64,000 nucleotides of DNA, from assembly GCA_964636225.1 (NCBI GenBank), contig CAZWQM010000001.1:2717-66716 (forward strand). The letters are read 5' to 3'. Positions within the stretch are counted from its first letter, which is position 1. Every line of letters begins with the position of its first letter. Source of the stretch: an uncultured Thiotrichales bacterium (GTDB lineage Bacteria > Pseudomonadota > Gammaproteobacteria > UBA4575). Positions 1 through 60,308 of this stretch are shown piece after piece. The notes under the pieces are model-generated. The model saw only the letters and a list, made by a program, of their open reading frames with translations. It did no database searches and had not been told where the DNA came from. Position numbers and translations under genes: made by a program.

Positions 1-102
1 GAAGTGCCTGACAATGCGCATATTGACTATGACGGAAAAAGTTGGGTTTGCAACAAACCATTGAAAAAACTAAATAATGAATGTGTTGCTAGGAATAAGT
101 AG
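1..102 (+). CDS. 3' end of a gene that starts upstream of the window (hypothetical)
   Basis: Open frame runs from window start to TAG at 100-102 (…ECVARNK*). No recognisable family. Confidence 0.25.
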   Translation, partial: EVPDNAHIDYDGKSWVCNKPLKKLNNECVARNK

Positions 103-526
103 TCATTAGTAAATCATTCATCAAAGATATTTGATGGCAGGTTTAATCGTTGCTTTAAATCAAGTCAAATAATAAAGCCTAACTATGTTGAGTGACCGCT
201 TTTTACTCTCGAAGCGTAGATATATTTTATAAATCGGATTTTTCTATAATTGATGGATCAACAAAGTTAATTTATAAACTAGGAAAGTTATAGAATAAAA
301 AACTCTGTAGTAGCTAAATTTTTAGTGTCAGTATAAAGCTGGCACTCTTCGTTTACCTTTTTTGTAAAAATTGGGTGAACTAATTTTTCAATTTCTGGTG
401 CATTCTGGTCTGCACATATATCAAACGTGGTAATCTTTACCGATTTACCTCGAAATACTAAAATAAGTCTTCGCCTAGACCATCCCAAAAATCTTGGGTA
501 GGCCGATTCTTGGAGAAATTCCAAAT

Positions 527-1729
527 ATGTCATTTGAAACTCTCGGTCTTAGTGCCGAATTACACCGTGCAGTGTCTGAAAAAGGCTATAGCACACCAAC
601 ACCAATACAATGTCAGGCAATCCCTTTAATTTTACAAGGTCGTGACATAATGGGTGCCGCGCAGACAGGAACCGGTAAAACTGCTGGGTTCACCCTGCCG
701 CTATTGCAGCGGTTAATGTCTTCCAGTACAAACATAAAAGGACGTCGTCCTATCCGTTCGCTAGTGATAGTGCCAACTCGAGAGCTTGCTGCGCAAGTTG
801 CTGAAAGTGTGTTTACTTATGGTAAGTACTTACCGCTTCGGTCCACCGCAGTGTTTGGTGGCGTAAGCATCAATCTGCAAAAACAAACTCTGCAAAACGG
901 TGTGGATGTTCTAGTCGCCACCCCAGGCAGGCTGCTAGATCACGTCCGTCAAGGCACTGTCGACCTCTCGAATGTGGAAATTCTAGTGCTTGATGAGGCC
1001 GATCGCATGCTTGATATGGGATTTATTCATGATATCCGTAAAGTGCTCGCACTATTGCCAAAACACAAACAAACGTTACTTTTCTCAGCCACTTTCTCTA
1101 AAGAAATTAAGCAGCTGGGAAACAACTTACTCAAGTCGCCAGCCTTGATTGAAGTGGCTACTCAAAATACGGCTTCAGATCTTGTTACTCAGGTTGTCCA
1201 TCCGGTAGATAAAAGTCGAAAGCGTGAATTGCTTTCTTATCTGATTGGTATGAATAACTGGAAACAACTACTGGTATTTAACCGTACTAAACACAGCGCA
1301 AATCGACTGTCCAAGCAATTAATTGCTGACGGCATCAGCGCAACTGCGATTCATGGTAATAAGAGCCAGGGTGCACGCACCAAAGCGCTAGCAGATTTCA
1401 AATCTGGCAAAGTGCGTGTTTTAGTTGCAACGGATATTGCTGCGCGAGGCCTTGATATTAGCCAGCTACCGCACGTAGTAAATTTTGACTTGCCAAATGC
1501 CGCGGAGGACTACGTTCACCGAATTGGCCGCACAGGTCGGGCTGGTCATGAAGGAGAAGCCGTGTCACTGGTGTGCCTGGAAGAAGTGAAGCTGCTTAAA
1601 AATATCGAACGTCTTATAAATCGCGGTATACCGAAAGTGGTAATTAATAATTTTGAGCCTGACCTCTCCATCGAGCCGTCACCCATTAAGATAGGAGGCG
1701 GGAAAAAGAACACTTCTAAAAAGTTTTGA
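527..1729 (+). CDS. rhlE: ATP-dependent DEAD-box RNA helicase RhlE
   Basis: Starts MSFETLGL…TPTPIQ (Q-motif). Has AQTGTGKT (motif I), PTRELA, DEAD box ([13 protein letters not shown]), [13 protein letters not shown] (motif VI). Start chosen at the internal ATG at 527 that matches the canonical helicase N-terminus. Confidence 0.9.
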
Positions 1730-1911
1730 AGAAGCGATCTCAACAGAATTGGGATAGTTCAGATTTATCATTGTCGTATGACTTTATAAATTGACTGTAA
1801 CTCTGTAGGGATCGATAGTCTTAAGAATAATCAAAAAAGGAAGCTAAAAGTGTATAGCTATAAATGTTATTTTGAAGCAGACAGTACTCTGCAGTCATAT
1901 GAGGATATTTA

Positions 1912-2562
1912 TTGTCGTCAATAAGATTTCGATATCAAACCATCGAGTTCGGTGACCGAGATATACATTTGCGCACTCTGCGTGACAAACAGCAATATTG
2001 TGACAAAGATAGAGTTGCTGAAAAGCTTGGGATATCTTCCGCTATGTGGCCGATGTTTGGTGTCATATGGCCATCCAGTCAAGTATTAGCCAATTATCTT
2101 CAGGATTTTGATATTAAGAATAAACGAATCCTCGAAGTAGGTTGTGGGATTGGATTAGTTAGCCTACTTTTAAACTCACGACTAGCAAACATTACTGCTA
2201 CTGATTTTCATCCTGAGGTGGAAAAATATCTTAATATTAATGTTCACTTAAACAACGGTAAAAAAATACCATTTGTAAGAACTGGTTGGGACGATAATAT
2301 CAGTATCCTTGGAAAATTTGATCTTATAGTAGGGAGTGACTTGCTATATGAAAAAGATCATGCCAAATCATTGTCCAGCTTCATTAATCAACATGCAAAA
2401 GTGAAAGTTGAGGTAATACTTGCGGATCCTGGCAGAGGTGTTCACGCTTCGTTTAGCAAAAACATGAATTTACTGGGTTATTCACATAATCAATACAAAG
2501 TGAACGATACCCCATGTCTTGAGACTCCATTTAAAGGACGAATTTTACGATATCAGCGTTAA
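1912..2562 (+). CDS. class I SAM-dependent methyltransferase (protein-lysine MTase-like)
   Basis: EVGCGIGLVSLLL glycine-rich SAM motif, followed by GSDLLY (post-II motif typical of METTL21/Nnt1-like methyltransferases). Confidence 0.55.
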   Translation: MSSIRFRYQTIEFGDRDIHLRTLRDKQQYCDKDRVAEKLGISSAMWPMFGVIWPSSQVLANYLQDFDIKNKRILEVGCGIGLVSLLLNSRLANITATDFHPEVEKYLNINVHLNNGKKIPFVRTGWDDNISILGKFDLIVGSDLLYEKDHAKSLSSFINQHAKVKVEVILADPGRGVHASFSKNMNLLGYSHNQYKVNDTPCLETPFKGRILRYQR

Positions 2563-3248
2563 TGGTTAATTGAATAGGTTAACCACAGGCTATATCTGAT
2601 GAAAATTTGAGAATAACCAACCATCGTGATTGGAGGAAGCCTTGGTAAAGCAAGTTGTGAAAAACCGTCTGCTAAAAAAGCGTAATCGCAGATGAATAGG
2701 ACGATACATGAGGCATCCGGCTTCTGAGCGATACGAGATCATTTGCCCGCTCTAATAGCCCAGATAAACATCCTTCTCATTGACTTGGGTTAGCCATTTC
2801 TTCTGTTGCCTATCGAAAAAGATCCATATCATATTTTATCCTCTCTTTAAGATTATCTATCAGAGGCTTGCAACCTGGGCTGAGTCTAAAGTAACCAGTG
2901 TGAGACTATCGGGTTGATTTCATTGACAATGAGTAGAATGAAGGTATGCTTCCCGCTCCAAGCCAAAGAACTTCACATTAAAAATTATTTGCCACTATAA
3001 CGCCACAATTACAGTCGTAAAACTTGTGAATACAAAAAGGCATAGTGAATTAAATAAACCAAACCATGCAAACAAATTTGGTTATAATTCGCAACTTCCT
3101 AAGAATAGGTTCGCACATTTTAAATGGACGAAAAATAGGAAGAAAAAATAATTAAAAACAAAAAGTTAATAAAACTTTATAAAGTGACTTGTAACGCAAG
3201 AATCTGGGCCAACTCAGAGCTTGTGGCAATCATAAAAGTAAAAACCAC

Positions 3249-3322
3249 GGCGAGTTGGCAGAGTGGTGATGCAGCGGCCTGCAAAGCCGTGTACAGCGGT
3301 TCGATTCCGCTACTCGCCTCCA
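3249..3322 (+). tRNA. tRNA-Cys (GCA)
   Basis: GGCGAGTTGGCAGAGTGGT…CCTGCAAAGCC…GGTTCGATTCCGCTACTCGCCTCCA. Cloverleaf with GCA anticodon and encoded CCA. Close to E. coli tRNA-Cys. Confidence 0.85.
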
Positions 3323-3478
3323 AGTCACGTCCCGCTATTTTAAAAAAATGCGCCTAAGTAGCGCGTGACTGAAGACTGCGAATCTAACAATTGTACGCAG
3401 GTGAATTAAAAGCCCACTACTTAAATGAGTGGCAGAAATCAGAAGTACACACAGTAGTATTAAAAAACCCATCACCCT

Positions 3479-3566
3479 GCCCGGGTGGCGGAATTGGTAG
3501 ACGCAAGGGACTTAAAATCCCTCGCCTGTATAAGGCGTGCCGGTTCGACTCCGGCCCCGGGCACCA
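3479..3566 (+). tRNA. tRNA-Leu (TAA)
   Basis: GCCCGGGTGGCGGAATTGGTAGACGC…GGGACTTAAAATCCC…long variable arm…GGTTCGACTCCGGCCCCGGGCACCA. Type II tRNA with anticodon TAA. Confidence 0.85.
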
Positions 3567-3847
3567 TTAAAAACAGTTAGTTATAATGTTTTATTAATCT
3601 ATAAAATTAAGTGATAATTATTCTGGGTATACCTATGGGTATACTTTGACTTAACAAGTTCACGCTCCATTTATATCTAAGTTCTAGCGTCCACTCCCCG
3701 TTTCACCCCCAGAGGGGCCCCAACCAATCTTAATCAGATTACCGAAAGTAATTTCATTTATTAAAAATTAAATGTTTCATATGGTTTCATTTGTTATTGT
3801 GTTTGCAGAGATTGATTCTCAAATCAACAAAATAAGAATTTTTAATA

Positions 3848-4228
3848 ATGGACAATTTAAATACATCTGGCGATATATATAAGTACTTTCTCGATTCTGC
3901 ACAATTTCCATATTCCACTGCAGAGCAAAATTGTATAAAAAATACCGTCAATAAGCTTTTCGCTCAGCCAACTAAGGGCAGTCATCCGGGGATGCTTTTA
4001 GGGAAAATTCAGTCGGGTAAAACAAAAACGTTCATGGCCATCATTGGTCTCGCATTTGATAATGGTTACCAAGTTTCTGTTGTATTTACGAAGGGAACTA
4101 AAGCTTTATCTAAACAGACTGAACAAAGAATTCAAAAGGATTTTAGTAAATTCATAGAAAATGATGATCTTCTAGTTTTCGACATAATGAATATGCCTTT
4201 ATCACTGTATAAGGCTTTTCATCTATAA
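3848..4228 (+). pseudogene. N-terminal fragment of a P-loop (Z1-domain-like) protein
   Basis: 126-aa ORF with a Walker-A-like motif LLGKIQSGKTKTFMAIIGLA near the N-terminus. The ORF stops after about 125 aa with no helicase/ATPase body, and its 3' end is overlapped by an antisense ORF. Truncated. Confidence 0.3.
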
Positions 4229-4541
4229 ATGCTTTTAAAGCCGCTAAGTATAAAAGGTCATATAACTTTGCATTTGCTTTTTTGAATGGATTTCTCGTGG
4301 CTGAATAGTTGTAAATTAGTACATCGATATCGTCATGCTCTATATGGTCGTCTGGATGATGTAGTTCTTTATCTCGATTCCTTAGACTATCTATGTGGTC
4401 TGATAGTATCTGTATGCATTTAGAAATATCTTTCCAATCCACATGATGAAAATGTAATTTACTCCAAATAAGTGCTAGCCGAACAGGATCGTCAAGTTGA
4501 TCGAAACTCCAATTAATAAATTGTTCATATTTTTTGGGCAT
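4152..4541 (-). CDS. hypothetical protein (possible gene fragment)
   Basis: 129-aa ORF, His/Asp-rich, no recognisable motif. Lies in the tRNA-Leu islet and overlaps the 3' end of the previous fragment. Confidence 0.25.
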   Translation of the reverse strand: MPKKYEQFINWSFDQLDDPVRLALIWSKLHFHHVDWKDISKCIQILSDHIDSLRNRDKELHHPDDHIEHDDIDVLIYNYSATRNPFKKANAKLYDLLYLAALKAFIDEKPYTVIKAYSLCRKLEDHHFL

Positions 4542-4759
4542 GTATCTCAGAATAATATAAATGTTTGATTATATTAAAATAAGTAGATCTAGTTAAATGC
4601 TACATCATTCTTTAAAGTATTTTGTAGATACCTAGATTTCATGAATTATAATATTTATAAACTCTATTGACACATAGATAATTGAATTCAGCTCACGCAA
4701 ATAAAAATGGCATTGCGGCTGTTTTATAAACAAAGATACTCTAGTAAGGAGATAAAGAA

Positions 4760-5110
4760 TTGGAAAATGAAATATCAGGGCTTTTAGACAAACTTAGAGC
4801 TTTTTCTGAAGCACGTGATTGGGCTCAGTTCCACTCACCAAAAAATTTAGCTTGTGCATTGTCAGTTGAAGCATCAGAGCTTTTAGAACATTTTCAATGG
4901 ATGAAAGAAGATGAAAGTCGATTACTTTCATCCGAAAAGTTAGCAGCGGTTGAGTCTGAAATTGCTGATGTTTTTTGTTACTTGCTTATGATTTCTGAAA
5001 AGCTTGGCATTGACTTAATTAAATCAACTAATAAAAAAATAGAGTTTAATAATTTGCGTTATCCGGTAGATAAGGCAAAAGGTCGAAGCAACAAATATAC
5101 CGAGTTATAA
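4760..5110 (+). CDS. MazG-like nucleoside-triphosphate pyrophosphohydrolase (small single-domain type)
   Basis: 116 aa. EASELLEHF (EExxE metal-binding helix) and EIADVFCYLLMISEKLGIDL (second MazG helix). Ends 10 bp before the start of the next gene. Confidence 0.7.
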   Translation: MENEISGLLDKLRAFSEARDWAQFHSPKNLACALSVEASELLEHFQWMKEDESRLLSSEKLAAVESEIADVFCYLLMISEKLGIDLIKSTNKKIEFNNLRYPVDKAKGRSNKYTEL

Positions 5111-5119
5111 AAGGTATTT

Positions 5120-6997
5120 ATGATTATTTACAAATCCACGGTAAAGGAATTTCGTGATAATTGTTTCACTAGGGCTATTGGTGAGGTTGTTCAAGAAACA
5201 TATGAACGGATTACTCATAAACATGTAGGCCAATCTGAAATTAACTCATGGAGTTCATCGCTACAGCAAGTTGCCATTGCGTTAAATGATGATGAAATTC
5301 CCAGCGATGCAGGCGTAGCTATTGAGTACACAATTCCTCAATCATCAAAACGGGTTGATTTTATTATTACTGGGTATGATGAATTTAAAAAACCATCACT
5401 AATTATTTTAGAACTTAAGCAATGGTCTACGTCAAAAGTTTCAGACAAAGACGGCATTATTATTGCTCGCAGAGGTGGTTCATCTGGCGAAACTGAAGGA
5501 CCACATCCATCATATCAAGCTTGGTCTTATGCAGCACTTTTAAAAGGGTTTAATGAAGCGGTCTATACATCTGAAATAGAACTACTTCCCTGTGCCTATC
5601 TACATAACCATCCAGCCGACGATACTGTTAATAACGAGACATATAGCGACTATATCAAGCAAGCTCCTTTATTTTTAAAGGGAGATATTGAACGAAAGCG
5701 TCTTCGTTCTTTTGTTGCACAACATATAAAGCATGGAGATGCAGCTGCGTTAATAGAAGTTGTGGAGGGTGGCAGAATTAGGCCATCAAAGGCTTTGGCA
5801 GACAGCTTAAGTAAAATGATTAAAGGTAATCAAGAATTTATATTAATAGATGACCAAAAAGTAGTATATGAATCAGTTCTATCAACTGCTACAACAGCGA
5901 CAGAAGCAGCAAAAAAAGTCATCGTAATTGAAGGTGGGCCTGGCACAGGTAAATCCGTTGTCGCCATCAATTTATTAGTTGAATTAACCAAGCGAGGTCT
6001 TTTAACTAAATATGTCTCTAAGAACGCCGCACCTCGTGCTGTTTATAAAGCAAGGCTAACTAGAACGCTAAAACAAACAGAGATTAGCAATATGTTTGGT
6101 GGTTCAGGGGCGTTTATTGAAACAAAGGATAATATTTTTGACGTGTTACTAGTAGATGAGGCTCATAGATTAAATGAAAAATCTGGACTTTATGGCAATT
6201 TAGGCGAAAACCAGATTAAGGAAATTATTAAATCATCAAAATGTTCAGTATTTTTTATTGATGAAAGCCAGCGTGTTACGTTATCTGACATTGGGCGTAT
6301 TGCTGAAATAAAAAAACATGCTGAAGCATTAGGCGCTGCTGTAACTAAGTACGAATTAGCCTCTCAATTTAGATGCGGTGGGTCTGATGGCTACCTCTCT
6401 TGGTTGGACAATACACTCGGCATTAGAGAAACGGCCAATAACATGCTGGATACTGCTGAATATGATTTTAGAATTTTTGATACAGCTAGTGAATTACACG
6501 AGGTAATAGCGCAAAAAAACCTAGAAAAAAATAGTGCTCGTGTTGTTGCAGGTTATTGCTGGGAATGGTTAAGTAAAAATAATAGTAATGCCTATGACAT
6601 AGTTCTAGAAGATGGCAAATATAAAAAGCGCTGGAATCTAAGTCAAGATGGTAGCCTCTGGATTATTGCACCCAGTTCTGTTGAGCAAGTAGGTTGTATT
6701 CATACTTGCCAGGGACTCGAAGTTGATTATATCGGAGTGATTATTGGCCCAGATTTAATTGTTAGAGATGGTGTAATTCAAACCCGTTATCGTGAACGTG
6801 CAACTGCTGACCGTCGGAAATCGCTAACTGGTATCGAGGGATTGATGCAAACCAACCCCCAAGAGGCTCTTAACGCAGCAGATGAAATCATTAAAAACAC
6901 TTATCGAACATTGATGACTCGCGGCATGAAAGCCTGTTATGTGTATTCTGCCGATGAGGAAACCAGAGCCTATTTTGCTGGGTGTTTGAGTCGTTGA
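5120..6997 (+). CDS. DUF2075-family nuclease-helicase (Nhi-like); N-terminal PD-(D/E)xK-like domain plus SF1 helicase/AAA domain
   Basis: N-terminal region KRVDFIITGYD…IILELKQW (D…ExK nuclease-like). Central Walker A VIVIEGGPGTGKSVVAINLL and Walker B/DEAH-like LLVDEAHRL. C-terminal GYCWEW…helicase C-domain motifs. Architecture typical of DUF2075 proteins. Confidence 0.75.
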   Translation: MIIYKSTVKEFRDNCFTRAIGEVVQETYERITHKHVGQSEINSWSSSLQQVAIALNDDEIPSDAGVAIEYTIPQSSKRVDFIITGYDEFKKPSLIILELKQWSTSKVSDKDGIIIARRGGSSGETEGPHPSYQAWSYAALLKGFNEAVYTSEIELLPCAYLHNHPADDTVNNETYSDYIKQAPLFLKGDIERKRLRSFVAQHIKHGDAAALIEVVEGGRIRPSKALADSLSKMIKGNQEFILIDDQKVVYESVLSTATTATEAAKKVIVIEGGPGTGKSVVAINLLVELTKRGLLTKYVSKNAAPRAVYKARLTRTLKQTEISNMFGGSGAFIETKDNIFDVLLVDEAHRLNEKSGLYGNLGENQIKEIIKSSKCSVFFIDESQRVTLSDIGRIAEIKKHAEALGAAVTKYELASQFRCGGSDGYLSWLDNTLGIRETANNMLDTAEYDFRIFDTASELHEVIAQKNLEKNSARVVAGYCWEWLSKNNSNAYDIVLEDGKYKKRWNLSQDGSLWIIAPSSVEQVGCIHTCQGLEVDYIGVIIGPDLIVRDGVIQTRYRERATADRRKSLTGIEGLMQTNPQEALNAADEIIKNTYRTLMTRGMKACYVYSADEETRAYFAGCLSR

Positions 6998-7293
6998 AGT
7001 TAAATCGTCGTTGATGCTGCTTGAGAGTGGGGAACCCCGATACCACAGAAAAGTTTTTTGCTTGGGGCAGCATTAAGGATGCCAATAAACTCACCTAATT
7101 GTTCGTCCAAAATACAGTGTAAGTATTGCCAGATGGGACCCAATTGAAAAATGGGGGGTAGGGCATCGCTAATCTTGCATGGTAAAATCAGTCATGGGTA
7201 CCTCTTAATAAAGCTTCCTAGGCTTAATTTTTTGGGGGTATTTATGGGGGTATCAAAATTATTACTAATAAAATAGTAGTTTATAATCAATTA

Positions 7294-7549
7294 ATTAAGA
7301 CAGAAATGTGATTCCGGCCCCGGCACCAATCTGGCAAAGCTATTTTGCTATCAGTTAAAACAACCCATCGATGTGCTGGCAGGCTCTAAACTGATCGCTA
7401 AAGGCTGGTATGACAACAGTTCGCAAAATCCGAATAATCCGGATCCTAACGCCGAAGTGAATTTCGGTCTGAGAACGCGTGATGAAATGATGATTGGTTA
7501 TTTCGACTGGGTAGATACACCTGCACAACAAACTGCACTAATAAAATAG
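7294..7549 (+). pseudogene. orphan 3' gene remnant (C-terminal about 80 codons, no start)
   Basis: Open frame …LAGSKLIAKGWYDNSSQNPNNPDPNAEVNFGLRTRDEMMIGYFDWVDTPAQQTALIK* ends at TAG 7547-7549. There is no upstream start or N-terminal body. It begins immediately at the att-like repeat. Confidence 0.3.
7311..7328 (+). repeat. degenerate direct repeat of the tRNA-Leu 3' end (candidate attR)
   Basis: TCCGGCCCCGGCACCA at 7313-7328 versus TCCGGCCCCGGGCACCA at tRNA-Leu 3550-3566. Identical apart from a one-nucleotide deletion. Confidence 0.45.
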
Positions 7550-7893
7550 AGTCAGACTCGAATTAAGTCGGCGAAATTAAAGATGTAGAACATGACATTT
7601 AAAAATTTATAAATGTAAATAATTTAATGTGGTGATGAACACTTAACATTAACGTGTTATATTGTAAAAAATCGAGTTTGTTCCTATTTCTACTAATTTT
7701 AAAATAGTTAACTTGTCAGTACCTGAATGACTCTGGTTGTTTCTGTAGAGTTTTCGTTACAGTAGTTAAGTACGACTGCCTGGATTTATTCATGAAATAT
7801 TTGACTAGATCTCATATGAATTAATGTGTGCGGCAATTAGTCGCATCGTTACTTTCATCCTCTCGTGTTATTTTGTTGCCGCTTTTGTCAGGC

Positions 7894-59950: not shown

Positions 59951-60308
59951 GGGGGCGACCTGGCTTCGACGTGGGTGACCGAACTCTAGGTGCATGCCGA
60001 GGATGTAGACACCTCGTTAAAGATTTCTGCAAACATATAGTCGCAAACGACGACAACTTTGCTCTAGCTGCCTAAAAACCAGTTTTAGAGTCGTCCGCCC
60101 TAGTGAGCTTGCGCGTTAGGATCCGGGCGTCACCTTAGCAAGATCGTGGCGAAACCTGTCTGTAGTGGAGCCATTAAACTTAGCACAGACTCGTGATTAA
60201 ACGCCCTGCCTGTCGGACCTTGATCACTAAAATAAAGACAGATCTAAGCATGTAGTACCGAAAGTGAAGAACTTGCGGACGCGGGTTCAATTCCCGCCGC
60301 CTCCACCA
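59951..60308 (+). ncRNA. ssrA: tmRNA (SsrA); tag reading frame 60043-60075 encodes ANDDNFALAA
   Basis: 5' GGGGGCGACCTGGCTTCGACGTGGG pairs with 3' …GCGGGTTCAATTCCCGCCGCCTCCACCA, forming a tRNA-Ala-like acceptor with a G3:U. The internal ORF GCA AAC GAC GAC AAC TTT GCT CTA GCT GCC TAA is the tag. Confidence 0.9.

Follow-up and report, generated by a model that had tools for sequence, protein, structure and literature searches.

The window analysed here is a stretch of 64,000 nucleotides (nt) from an uncultured Thiotrichales bacterium (contig CAZWQM010000001.1), and the element in question is an operon of two genes on its forward strand, which encode a small MazG-like nucleoside triphosphate (NTP) pyrophosphohydrolase and a large nuclease-helicase. 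Both open reading frames (ORFs) were called where an earlier note, made from the sequence alone, had placed them. The MazG-like ORF (4760-5110, +) encodes 116 amino acids (aa) from a TTG codon preceded, at a distance of 6 nt, by the Shine-Dalgarno sequence AAGGAG; end-to-end alignment of 116-aa homologues supports this start. The nuclease-helicase ORF (5120-6997, +) encodes 625 aa from an ATG start. The spacer between the MazG-like stop and this start measures 9 nt (5111-5119) rather than the 10 bp given in the note, and the motifs quoted there are all present and conserved (EExxE and E..ADV in the MazG-like protein; RVDF, ILELKQW, GGPGTGKS and VDEAHR in the large protein). The features of the operon are listed below, where SF1 stands for helicase superfamily 1.

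4743..6991 (+): transferable unit, consisting of the ribosome-binding site and the two ORFs (blastn against L094-L097)
4760..5110 (+): putative MazG-like (DCTPP1/RS21-C6 family) all-alpha NTP pyrophosphohydrolase, 116 aa (PF12643, PDB matches, conserved residues)
5120..5734 (+): predicted N-terminal PD-(D/E)xK restriction-endonuclease-fold domain, residues 1-205, with E69, D80 and E98-x-K100
5912..6955 (+): DUF2075 / Schlafen group 3 SF1B-type helicase core, residues 265-612 (PF09848, Foldseek)
5933-5956 (+): Walker A motif
6155-6166 (+): Walker B motif, DEAH

The small protein matches the Pfam family PF12643 (MazG-like) with an expectation value (E) of 2.5e-15 and 56.9 bits against a gathering cut-off of 27; its Pfam match is to this family and not to the classical MazG family PF03819. 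A sequence search against the PDB aligned essentially its whole length with archaeal 4QGP (1.8e-21) and with mouse and human RS21-C6/DCTPP1 (1.4e-18). The EXXE...EXXD metal-binding motif of all-alpha NTP pyrophosphohydrolases is complete (E37, E40, E67, D70), and the metal-binding acids E37, E40, E43, E67 and D70 are 100% conserved in 121 homologues, as are W21, W47 and Y74, which align to W47, W73 and Y102 of mouse DCTPP1. No PADLOC v2 model matched the protein. Judged by these residues and alignments, it is a DCTPP1-type deoxynucleoside triphosphate (dNTP) pyrophosphohydrolase with an intact metal site. DCTPP1 prefers 5-modified deoxycytidine triphosphate (dCTP), and the assignment to the DCTPP1/RS21-C6 type points to (modified) dCTP rather than alarmones as the substrate. 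The earlier suggestion that the enzyme acts on (d)NTPs or alarmones is thus favoured on the dNTP side and disfavoured on the alarmone side.

The large protein matches PF09848 with E = 1.3e-101 and 340.9 bits, residues 265-612 aligning to profile positions 1-354 of 354. This family, formerly DUF2075, is now named SLFN-g3_helicase (Schlafen group 3 DNA/RNA helicase domain). The two family assignments first proposed, DUF2075 and MazG-like, were therefore both recovered, with PF12643 in the place of PF03819. As a PDB sequence search with the large protein returned no match, we turned to structure prediction, and the AlphaFold2 model gave a predicted local distance difference test (pLDDT) score of 78. 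Foldseek searches with the modelled helicase core ranked human SLFN11 first (7e-11), followed by RecD2, Dda, SLFN14 (7e-7), Dna2 and Upf1; the four SF1B matches (RecD2, Dda, Dna2, Upf1) each had a probability of 1.00. The features of SF1B-type helicases are found in the core, namely Walker A (GGPGTGKS), Walker B (DEAH), a conserved arginine finger (R418, R601) and, in the model, a RecA-like two-lobe fold, and the N-terminal domain combines a predicted restriction-endonuclease fold with the D...(D/E)xK triad of the PD-(D/E)xK superfamily. Across 61 close relatives there is no variation in RVDF (D80), ILELKQW (E98, K100), GGPGTGKS (272-279) or VDEAHR (346-350), and when the comparison was extended to 21 relatives at identities down to 35%, E69, R78, D80, E98, K100, G275-K278, D346, E347, H349, R418 and R601 were retained in every one. 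At E ≤ 1e-3, 1,558 cluster representatives carry the N-terminal domain, always in the N-terminal position of proteins that, if complete, measure about 620-650 or 790-810 aa; none of the 150 best representatives is a MazG-helicase fusion, the domain beginning at residue 1-70 in all of them. A ligand-binding sensor domain is not evident in the large protein from Pfam or the model. Motifs and model together identify it as a PD-(D/E)xK-fold nuclease domain joined to an ATP-driven SF1B/Schlafen-type helicase with both sets of catalytic residues intact, in agreement with the PD-(D/E)xK-like N-terminal region and SF1 helicase core that had been read from its motifs.

We surveyed the pairing in a scan of one genome per species (185,579 species), in which at least 593 loci encoding the large protein were confirmed. 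The neighbourhood counts given in the following cover the best 80 of these at least 593 loci, whose proteins share 54-60% identity with that of the window. Homologues of the large protein number in the thousands, and the best relative among the matches listed in species-representative genomes is 60% identical. Hosts of the 80 loci comprise Xanthomonadales, Burkholderiales, Pseudomonas, Bacteroidota, delta-proteobacterial metagenome-assembled genomes (MAGs), Acidobacteriota, candidate-phyla-radiation (CPR) lineages and archaeal-labelled contigs or MAGs. With a profile built from the matches of MazG-like homologues, a MazG-like ORF was detected upstream on the same strand at 70 of the 80 loci; of the 67 gaps from MazG to helicase gene that could be measured, 66 fall between -4 and 72 nt, and at 10 loci the genes overlap by 4 nt. 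Among the ten exceptions, two have no upstream sequence on the contig, and at L078 the order is reversed, MazG following the helicase gene directly. A mirror-tree comparison of MazG and nuclease-helicase distances over the 70 loci gave a correlation of r = 0.76, a value reached by 0 of 2000 permutations. The two proteins co-evolve and move as a unit. A neighbourhood survey of this kind had been proposed in the earlier note, and it finds the adjacency conserved across phyla and not unique to the window genome.

Comparison of the islet that carries the operon with L094-L097 by blastn found homology only at 4743-6991 (91.4% identity) and 4751-6979 (85.4%). Copies that are 96% identical at the protein level sit in unrelated neighbourhoods with wholly different flanks, and the two-gene cassette is horizontally mobile and self-contained. 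The large protein is encoded in 26 plasmid records. The pair is found on a haloarchaeal plasmid (48% identity) and on a plasmid of Priestia (Bacillota; 37.5%), where the NCBI labels are 'nucleotide pyrophosphohydrolase' and 'DUF2075 domain-containing protein', and MazG is absent beside Streptomyces plasmid relatives of the nuclease-helicase at 27-29% identity. A plasmid of Hymenobacter canadensis carries two tandem DUF2075 genes without MazG (L086:6001-9987); their neighbours are transposase fragments and genes for a BPTD_3080-family restriction endonuclease, a DNA methyltransferase and a DUF4747 protein. All-against-all clustering of the flanking ORFs found no third gene, beyond MazG, conserved at more than 11 of the 80 loci, and antisense 'clusters' lying over MazG were rejected as genes, being shadow ORFs in high-GC genomes (GC, guanine plus cytosine).

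One GenBank record, PP438423 'Microcystis phage Mwe-JY31' (L088; 22 kilobases (kb), all hypothetical proteins), carries the pair at 5657-7863 with 53% identity. The pair is absent from 2.9 million IMG/VR contigs, and this record may not be a genuine phage genome. We rejected a phage origin of the pair, as no IMG/VR contig matched and only four GenBank phage records did, with the pair in just the doubtful Mwe-JY31 record.

A longer form of the nuclease-helicase is common. About 190 extra C-terminal residues are present in 31 of the 80 relatives (39%; e.g., L003, L006, L009, L012; P0026, P0071, P0103), and these tails carry a conserved Ala-Gly site (fAAG), a serine within GESMNRRIP and a yTvK lysine, the hallmarks of the self-cleaving proteins LexA, UmuD and lambda CI. 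GESM occurs in 30 of the 31 tails, and AG followed by GESM in 29. The scores against PF00717 are near threshold, with P0026 just below the cut-off of 23.3 bits (22.9) and P0103 and P0071 above it (25.2-25.4). The Ala-Gly site and the Ser/Lys dyad of S24 autoproteases are both found in the long variants, at the level of sequence, which suggests that RecA-filament-triggered self-cleavage may control the S24-tailed nuclease-helicases. MazG accompanies 27 of the 31 tailed relatives; the window copy of the nuclease-helicase is without the S24 domain.

In the window, the operon lies in a small islet next to a tRNA gene, with the following features.

3479..3566 (+): tRNA-Leu(UAA), whose 3' end is the left islet junction (attachment site) (ARAGORN, Rfam)
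3567..7329 (no strand): strain-specific islet of ~3.8 kb without integrase, carrying the operon (repeat, GC, unitig)
3625..3644 (+): tandem GGGTATAC, 12-nt period, near the left islet end (sequence reading)
3848..4228 (+): helicase fragment (Pfam ResIII 2.9e-5; PADLOC Helicase_II 2.2e-10 and MzaC 4.8e-6; NCBIfam MzaC 1.6e-5)
4152..4541 (-): orphan 129-aa ORF overlapping the helicase fragment
7234..7253 (+): tandem GGGGGTAT, 12-nt period, near the right islet end (sequence reading)

A degenerate direct repeat of the tRNA-Leu 3' end, GACTCCGGCCCCGG (3547-3560) and GATTCCGGCCCCGG (7310-7323), brackets the islet, whose GC fraction is 0.32-0.39 against 0.40-0.47 in the flanks. In a related strain (L104), which is 99% identical over window positions 1-3599, synteny is lost ~33 nt past the tRNA-Leu end (window 3479-3600 against L104:7690-7810). 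The repeat, the drop in GC and this divergence bear out the tRNA-anchored islet described in the earlier note, and tRNA-Leu(UAA) is a variable integration hotspot. The Logan unitig L093 is identical to window positions 3537-7351; if the assembler used k = 31, which we assumed, its path-specific bases are 3567-7321, so that an alternative path or allele would exist at the same site in the sample. The cargo of L104 beyond the tRNA-Leu gene comprises a 129-aa ORF and a DUF2238 gene. It also has a GGATTACG pair at ~7840-7865, a position equivalent to that of the GGGTATAC octamers, and the tandem octamers near the islet ends may be recombinase arm sites, the islet itself being without a recombinase gene.

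Of the features of integrative genomic islands at tRNA genes, insertion at the tRNA 3' end, a flanking direct repeat and strain-variable content are present. The ORF list holds no integrase or recombinase gene within the islet, which would therefore be a decayed or cargo-only one. The matches of the helicase fragment are confined to the first ~100 residues of much longer profiles, and the 129-aa ORF at 4152..4541 has no Pfam, PADLOC or NCBIfam match and is a singleton cluster in a collection of 15 billion proteins. Exact-match scans of JGI metagenomes for an empty tRNA-Leu site, using the predicted junction and the right flank, returned nothing, the host species being outside that collection. 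Scans for promoters and terminators in the islet performed no better than on shuffled controls, and Rfam found only the two tRNAs. To the right of the islet, a 58-aa ORF (7373-7549, +) resembles the C-terminal remnant of a longer gene, which hints at an earlier rearrangement at the site. Far downstream, the window contains a tmRNA (transfer-messenger RNA) gene (59951-60308) with the tag peptide ANDDNFALAA; tmRNA genes are classic island-integration sites.

The neighbours of the pair at other loci are variable, and defence genes are over-represented among them. The three nearest upstream ORFs include SoFic, PbeA, type IV and type I restriction enzymes, AriAB, PD-Lambda-2, IetA, ThsB and several PADLOC candidates. 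At L081, IS21, an EcoRII-C nuclease and a Dcm methylase lie directly upstream of the pair. Proximity to modification-dependent restriction genes is the most distinctive of these patterns. PLD-SF2-DUF3427 or HNH_2 genes occur within ~4 kb of the pair at 11 of the 80 loci, several of them abutting it; the PLD-SF2-DUF3427 proteins match the PADLOC profile mREase_IV over its full length (E about 1e-234), and the HNH_2 neighbours are proteins of ~320 aa. In Pedobacter sp. CAN_A7 (L056:6979-13980), MazG, the DUF2075 nuclease-helicase, a PLD-SF2-DUF3427 type IV enzyme and an HNH_2 endonuclease follow one another on one strand, with gaps of 14 and 16 nt after the helicase gene and an ASCH-domain gene preceding on the opposite strand; this cluster may represent a larger composite system. 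In Priestia, the start of MazG is overlapped by a gene with an MrcB_N domain, which we take to be a McrB-type reader of methylated DNA. The type IV adjacency of the pair fits published reports on DUF2075 neighbours of McaZI and on methylase-linked escape from Nhi-like. DUF2075 NTPases have been seen beside the modification-dependent enzyme McaZI and were proposed as partners of DUF3427-DUF3883 enzymes (Lutz et al.; PMC6765204). At a further locus (L082:908-8635), genes for DNA-damage functions immediately precede the pair: a LigT-like gene, an SRAP gene and what appears to be an ImuA-ImuB-DnaE2 mutasome, in which only the DnaE2-type polymerase has Pfam matches and ImuA and ImuB are assigned by size and position.

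Anti-phage activity has been demonstrated by experiment for Nhi of Staphylococcus epidermidis (SERP2475; Bari et al., 2022) and for Nhi-like (Millman et al., 2022), and PF09848 proteins are counted as abortive infection (Abi) genes in defence maps (PMC10121019). Given its intact enzymes, its tight, co-evolving and mobile operon, the variable islet, the defence and type IV neighbours, an Nhi-like architecture and this counting of PF09848 among Abi genes, we consider an anti-mobile-element module to be the best reading of the pair. With moderate confidence we take it to be a defence module, a two-gene form of the Nhi-like nuclease-helicase defences that has no name as yet, its anti-phage activity being suggested by genomic context and by its relatives. 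In such a module, the helicase would load on foreign or aberrant DNA and translocate, and the nuclease domain would degrade the DNA, as in Nhi. The MazG partner would hydrolyse non-canonical dCTP derivatives such as 5-methyl- or 5-hydroxymethyl-dCTP, which would starve phages that build modified DNA and would also block the salvage of modified nucleotides released by degradation into host DNA, where type IV enzymes would be drawn to them. This modified-dCTP mechanism is one we propose tentatively, as a possibility raised by the kinship with DCTPP1. In the S24-tailed relatives (~40%), activity would probably be switched by RecA-filament-stimulated cleavage at the conserved Ala-Gly bond. In its fullest form, the proposal is of a module that polices modified cytosine twice, the DCTPP1-like enzyme destroying 5-modified dCTP and the Schlafen-type nuclease-helicase destroying the DNA made from it, either independently or in the service of type IV restriction, as its motor and clean-up arm, with a LexA-like domain arming ~40% of the family on RecA filaments; that all of these parts hold together seems rather unlikely.

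Several observations weigh against a defence role. The flanks consist mostly of ordinary housekeeping genes, batches of ~130 ORFs containing 120-134 different Pfam families, many of them metabolic; C5-cytosine methylases are anecdotal cases among the neighbours and show no enrichment in the tallies. A tRNA gene lies within 8 kb at 9 of 60 loci, which we estimate to be about background, and proximity to tRNA genes was rejected as a rule for the family. For a defence protein, the 54-60% identity between phyla is unusually high, and the large protein was found on no IMG/VR viral contig, prophage-derived contigs included among the 2.9 million. The substrate specificity of the MazG-like protein is drawn from homology only, and protection against phages is a prediction made for the family as a whole. 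The S24 fusion and the ImuA-ImuB-DnaE2/SRAP neighbourhood of L082 fit a role in DNA damage equally well.

A DNA-damage tolerance or repair module is indeed a serious rival, which we judge unlikely on balance. The MazG-like enzyme would here sanitise damaged dCTP (mycobacterial MazG acts on 5-OH-dCTP, the 5-hydroxy derivative), the nuclease-helicase would process stalled forks or damaged DNA, and the S24 module, with its AAG site, GESM serine and TVK lysine in 31 of the 80 relatives, would tie the long variants to RecA filaments. Such a role would also suit the mutasome, SRAP and LigT-like genes immediately upstream of the pair at L082, a MutT gene two genes upstream at the Priestia locus, the very high sequence conservation across phyla and the abundance of housekeeping genes in the flanks. 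A solitary MazG relative (61% identity), flanked by an aldo-keto reductase and a methyltransferase, a housekeeping context that also speaks against defence, points the same way, as does the modelled helicase, whose closest structural relative is SLFN11, a replication-stress factor. Against repair stands the patchy, horizontal distribution of the pair, with at least 593 loci among 185,579 species in many bacterial phyla and on some archaeal- or CPR-labelled contigs, together with its presence in islets and on plasmids and the movement of the cassette between unrelated flanks at 85-96% identity. The enrichment of defence genes and type IV restriction enzymes beside it likewise favours defence over repair. 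Regulation of the operon by the SOS response was rejected for want of a LexA box: matches to CTGT-N8-ACAG with one mismatch allowed occur in only 5 of 68 regions of 250 nt upstream of MazG, which we judged to be about chance, and this too counts against a repair module.

MazG might instead be the safety catch of a toxin in an abortive infection system, in which a ligand would switch on a toxic nuclease-helicase and MazG would hydrolyse that ligand until infection overwhelms or inhibits it. The co-evolution of the two proteins and the position of MazG, first in the operon and often overlapping the start codon of the effector, are what such a device would look like. The mazEFG operon of Escherichia coli is a precedent for MazG beside a toxin, and NTP-hydrolysing partners in conflict systems likewise have a precedent (bioRxiv 10.64898/2026.01.15.699771). 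At ~10% of loci, however, the nuclease-helicase occurs without MazG, on chromosomes and on plasmids (L021, L022, L039, L061, L062, Hymenobacter, Methanosphaera), an observation that also detracts from the two-gene defence module and that means the nuclease-helicase is not intrinsically lethal. The association runs in one direction: of the MazG relatives, one at 64% identity is paired with the nuclease-helicase and the one at 61% is solitary. Solitary MazG relatives and MazG-less nuclease-helicases together disfavour an obligatory gating or antitoxin role of MazG, so that of the original idea of MazG as gate or assistant the obligatory gate does not stand. The downstream MazG at L078, the DCTPP1-like nature of the small protein (a predicted dNTP house-cleaning enzyme, not an alarmone or cyclic-nucleotide hydrolase) and the lack of an evident ligand-binding sensor domain in the large protein further make a safety catch improbable. 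A type II toxin-antitoxin system of the mazEFG kind was rejected on the missing MazE and MazF and on the same MazG-less loci. Finally, the pair could be a non-autonomous motor or clean-up accessory of type IV restriction that depends on a neighbouring reader-nuclease of modified DNA (DUF3427, MrcB_N, X-HNH). The 11 loci with such genes, several on the same strand with gaps of 14-30 nt, the MrcB_N gene overlapping MazG in Priestia, a DUF3883/NOV_C protein that occupies the upstream MazG position in Streptomyces (29% identity) and the partner proposal of Lutz et al. are in line with dependence of this sort. Yet 86% of loci, the window included, have no such neighbour within ~8 kb, a conserved nuclease domain is already part of the large protein, and the transferable unit consists of the two genes only, which makes an obligate accessory quite improbable.

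Should the defence module prove protective against phages, it would be a compact (2.2 kb) and very widely distributed addition to the defence catalogue, and would give a first function to a large conserved block of annotations reading 'DUF2075 domain-containing protein' and 'nucleotide pyrophosphohydrolase'. The partnership makes testable whether defence nucleases need a dedicated dNTP-sanitising enzyme, be it for phage starvation or for protection of host DNA. If the pair polices modified cytosine, it would be a prokaryotic case of nucleotide-pool sanitation coupled to replication-targeted restriction, given its human DCTPP1- and SLFN11-type counterparts. The LexA-like fusions would clearly exemplify a defence or repair effector coupled directly to the sensing of RecA filaments. 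As DCTPP1 and SLFN11 are its human relatives, the biochemistry of the pair could inform work on both.

We found no named system that pairs MazG with a DUF2075 nuclease-helicase in PADLOC v2 or the searchable literature, a very recent or unpublished name being possible, and the statement in the earlier note that the pairing corresponds to no named system holds to that extent. The nearest characterised relatives are Nhi and Nhi-like, the latter defined by an N-terminal nuclease and a DUF2075 helicase in one protein (Millman et al., 2022). Both share with the window protein a single polypeptide that joins an N-terminal PD-(D/E)xK nuclease to a DUF2075 (PF09848) SF1-type helicase. Loss of a phage DNA methylase lets phages evade Nhi-like, and this sensitivity to phage DNA methylation echoes the type IV restriction context of the window family. 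In contrast to these single-gene systems, the window family has a conserved MazG partner and, in 39% of its members, an S24 domain. The kinship proposed with Nhi is therefore one of architecture and not of sequence-level membership, since the PADLOC profiles of Nhi (PDLC02372; profile positions 178-329 of 470, 1.6e-12) and of AbiO, a lactococcal abortive infection protein that shares DUF2075 (PDLC02350, 3.5e-13), match the N-core of the helicase only (residues 237-418), at about 1e-12. The PADLOC candidate PDC-S41 (profile length 657) contains DUF2075 and in addition matches the N-terminal domain (residues 3-85 against positions 5-80, 8.4e-14), in a weak and partial match of 48.8 bits in two stretches. 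AbiO and PDC-S41 score 47-49 bits against 341 bits for PF09848, and neither has been described with a MazG partner; PDC-S41, a flagged defence candidate, is probably a distant sister family of the window protein, a distant relative at most.

The small protein has its own points of comparison. The mazEFG operon of E. coli and nucleotide-depleting defences (dCTP deaminase, dGTPase, and PUA-Cal-HAD with MazG-like replacements) resemble the pair in placing an NTP- or dNTP-hydrolysing enzyme in a conflict operon. The window pair differs from mazEFG and PUA-Cal-HAD in having no PUA or HAD partner and no MazE- or MazF-like gene (none was found in the islet by ORF list and Pfam), and its MazG is of the short PF12643 type. 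DCTPP1/RS21-C6 and 4QGP align with it over the whole length, with four metal-binding acids and three aromatics matched; compared with DCTPP1/RS21-C6, the window protein, DCTPP1-like as judged by its sequence, is minimal, bacterial and encoded in an operon with a nuclease-helicase. The human Schlafen group III proteins SLFN11 and SLFN14 belong to the same Pfam family as the large protein and are among the best structural matches of its modelled helicase core, but they carry a Schlafen/AlbA_2 tRNA nuclease at the N-terminus where the window protein has a predicted restriction-endonuclease fold, and the sequences share ~12% identity.

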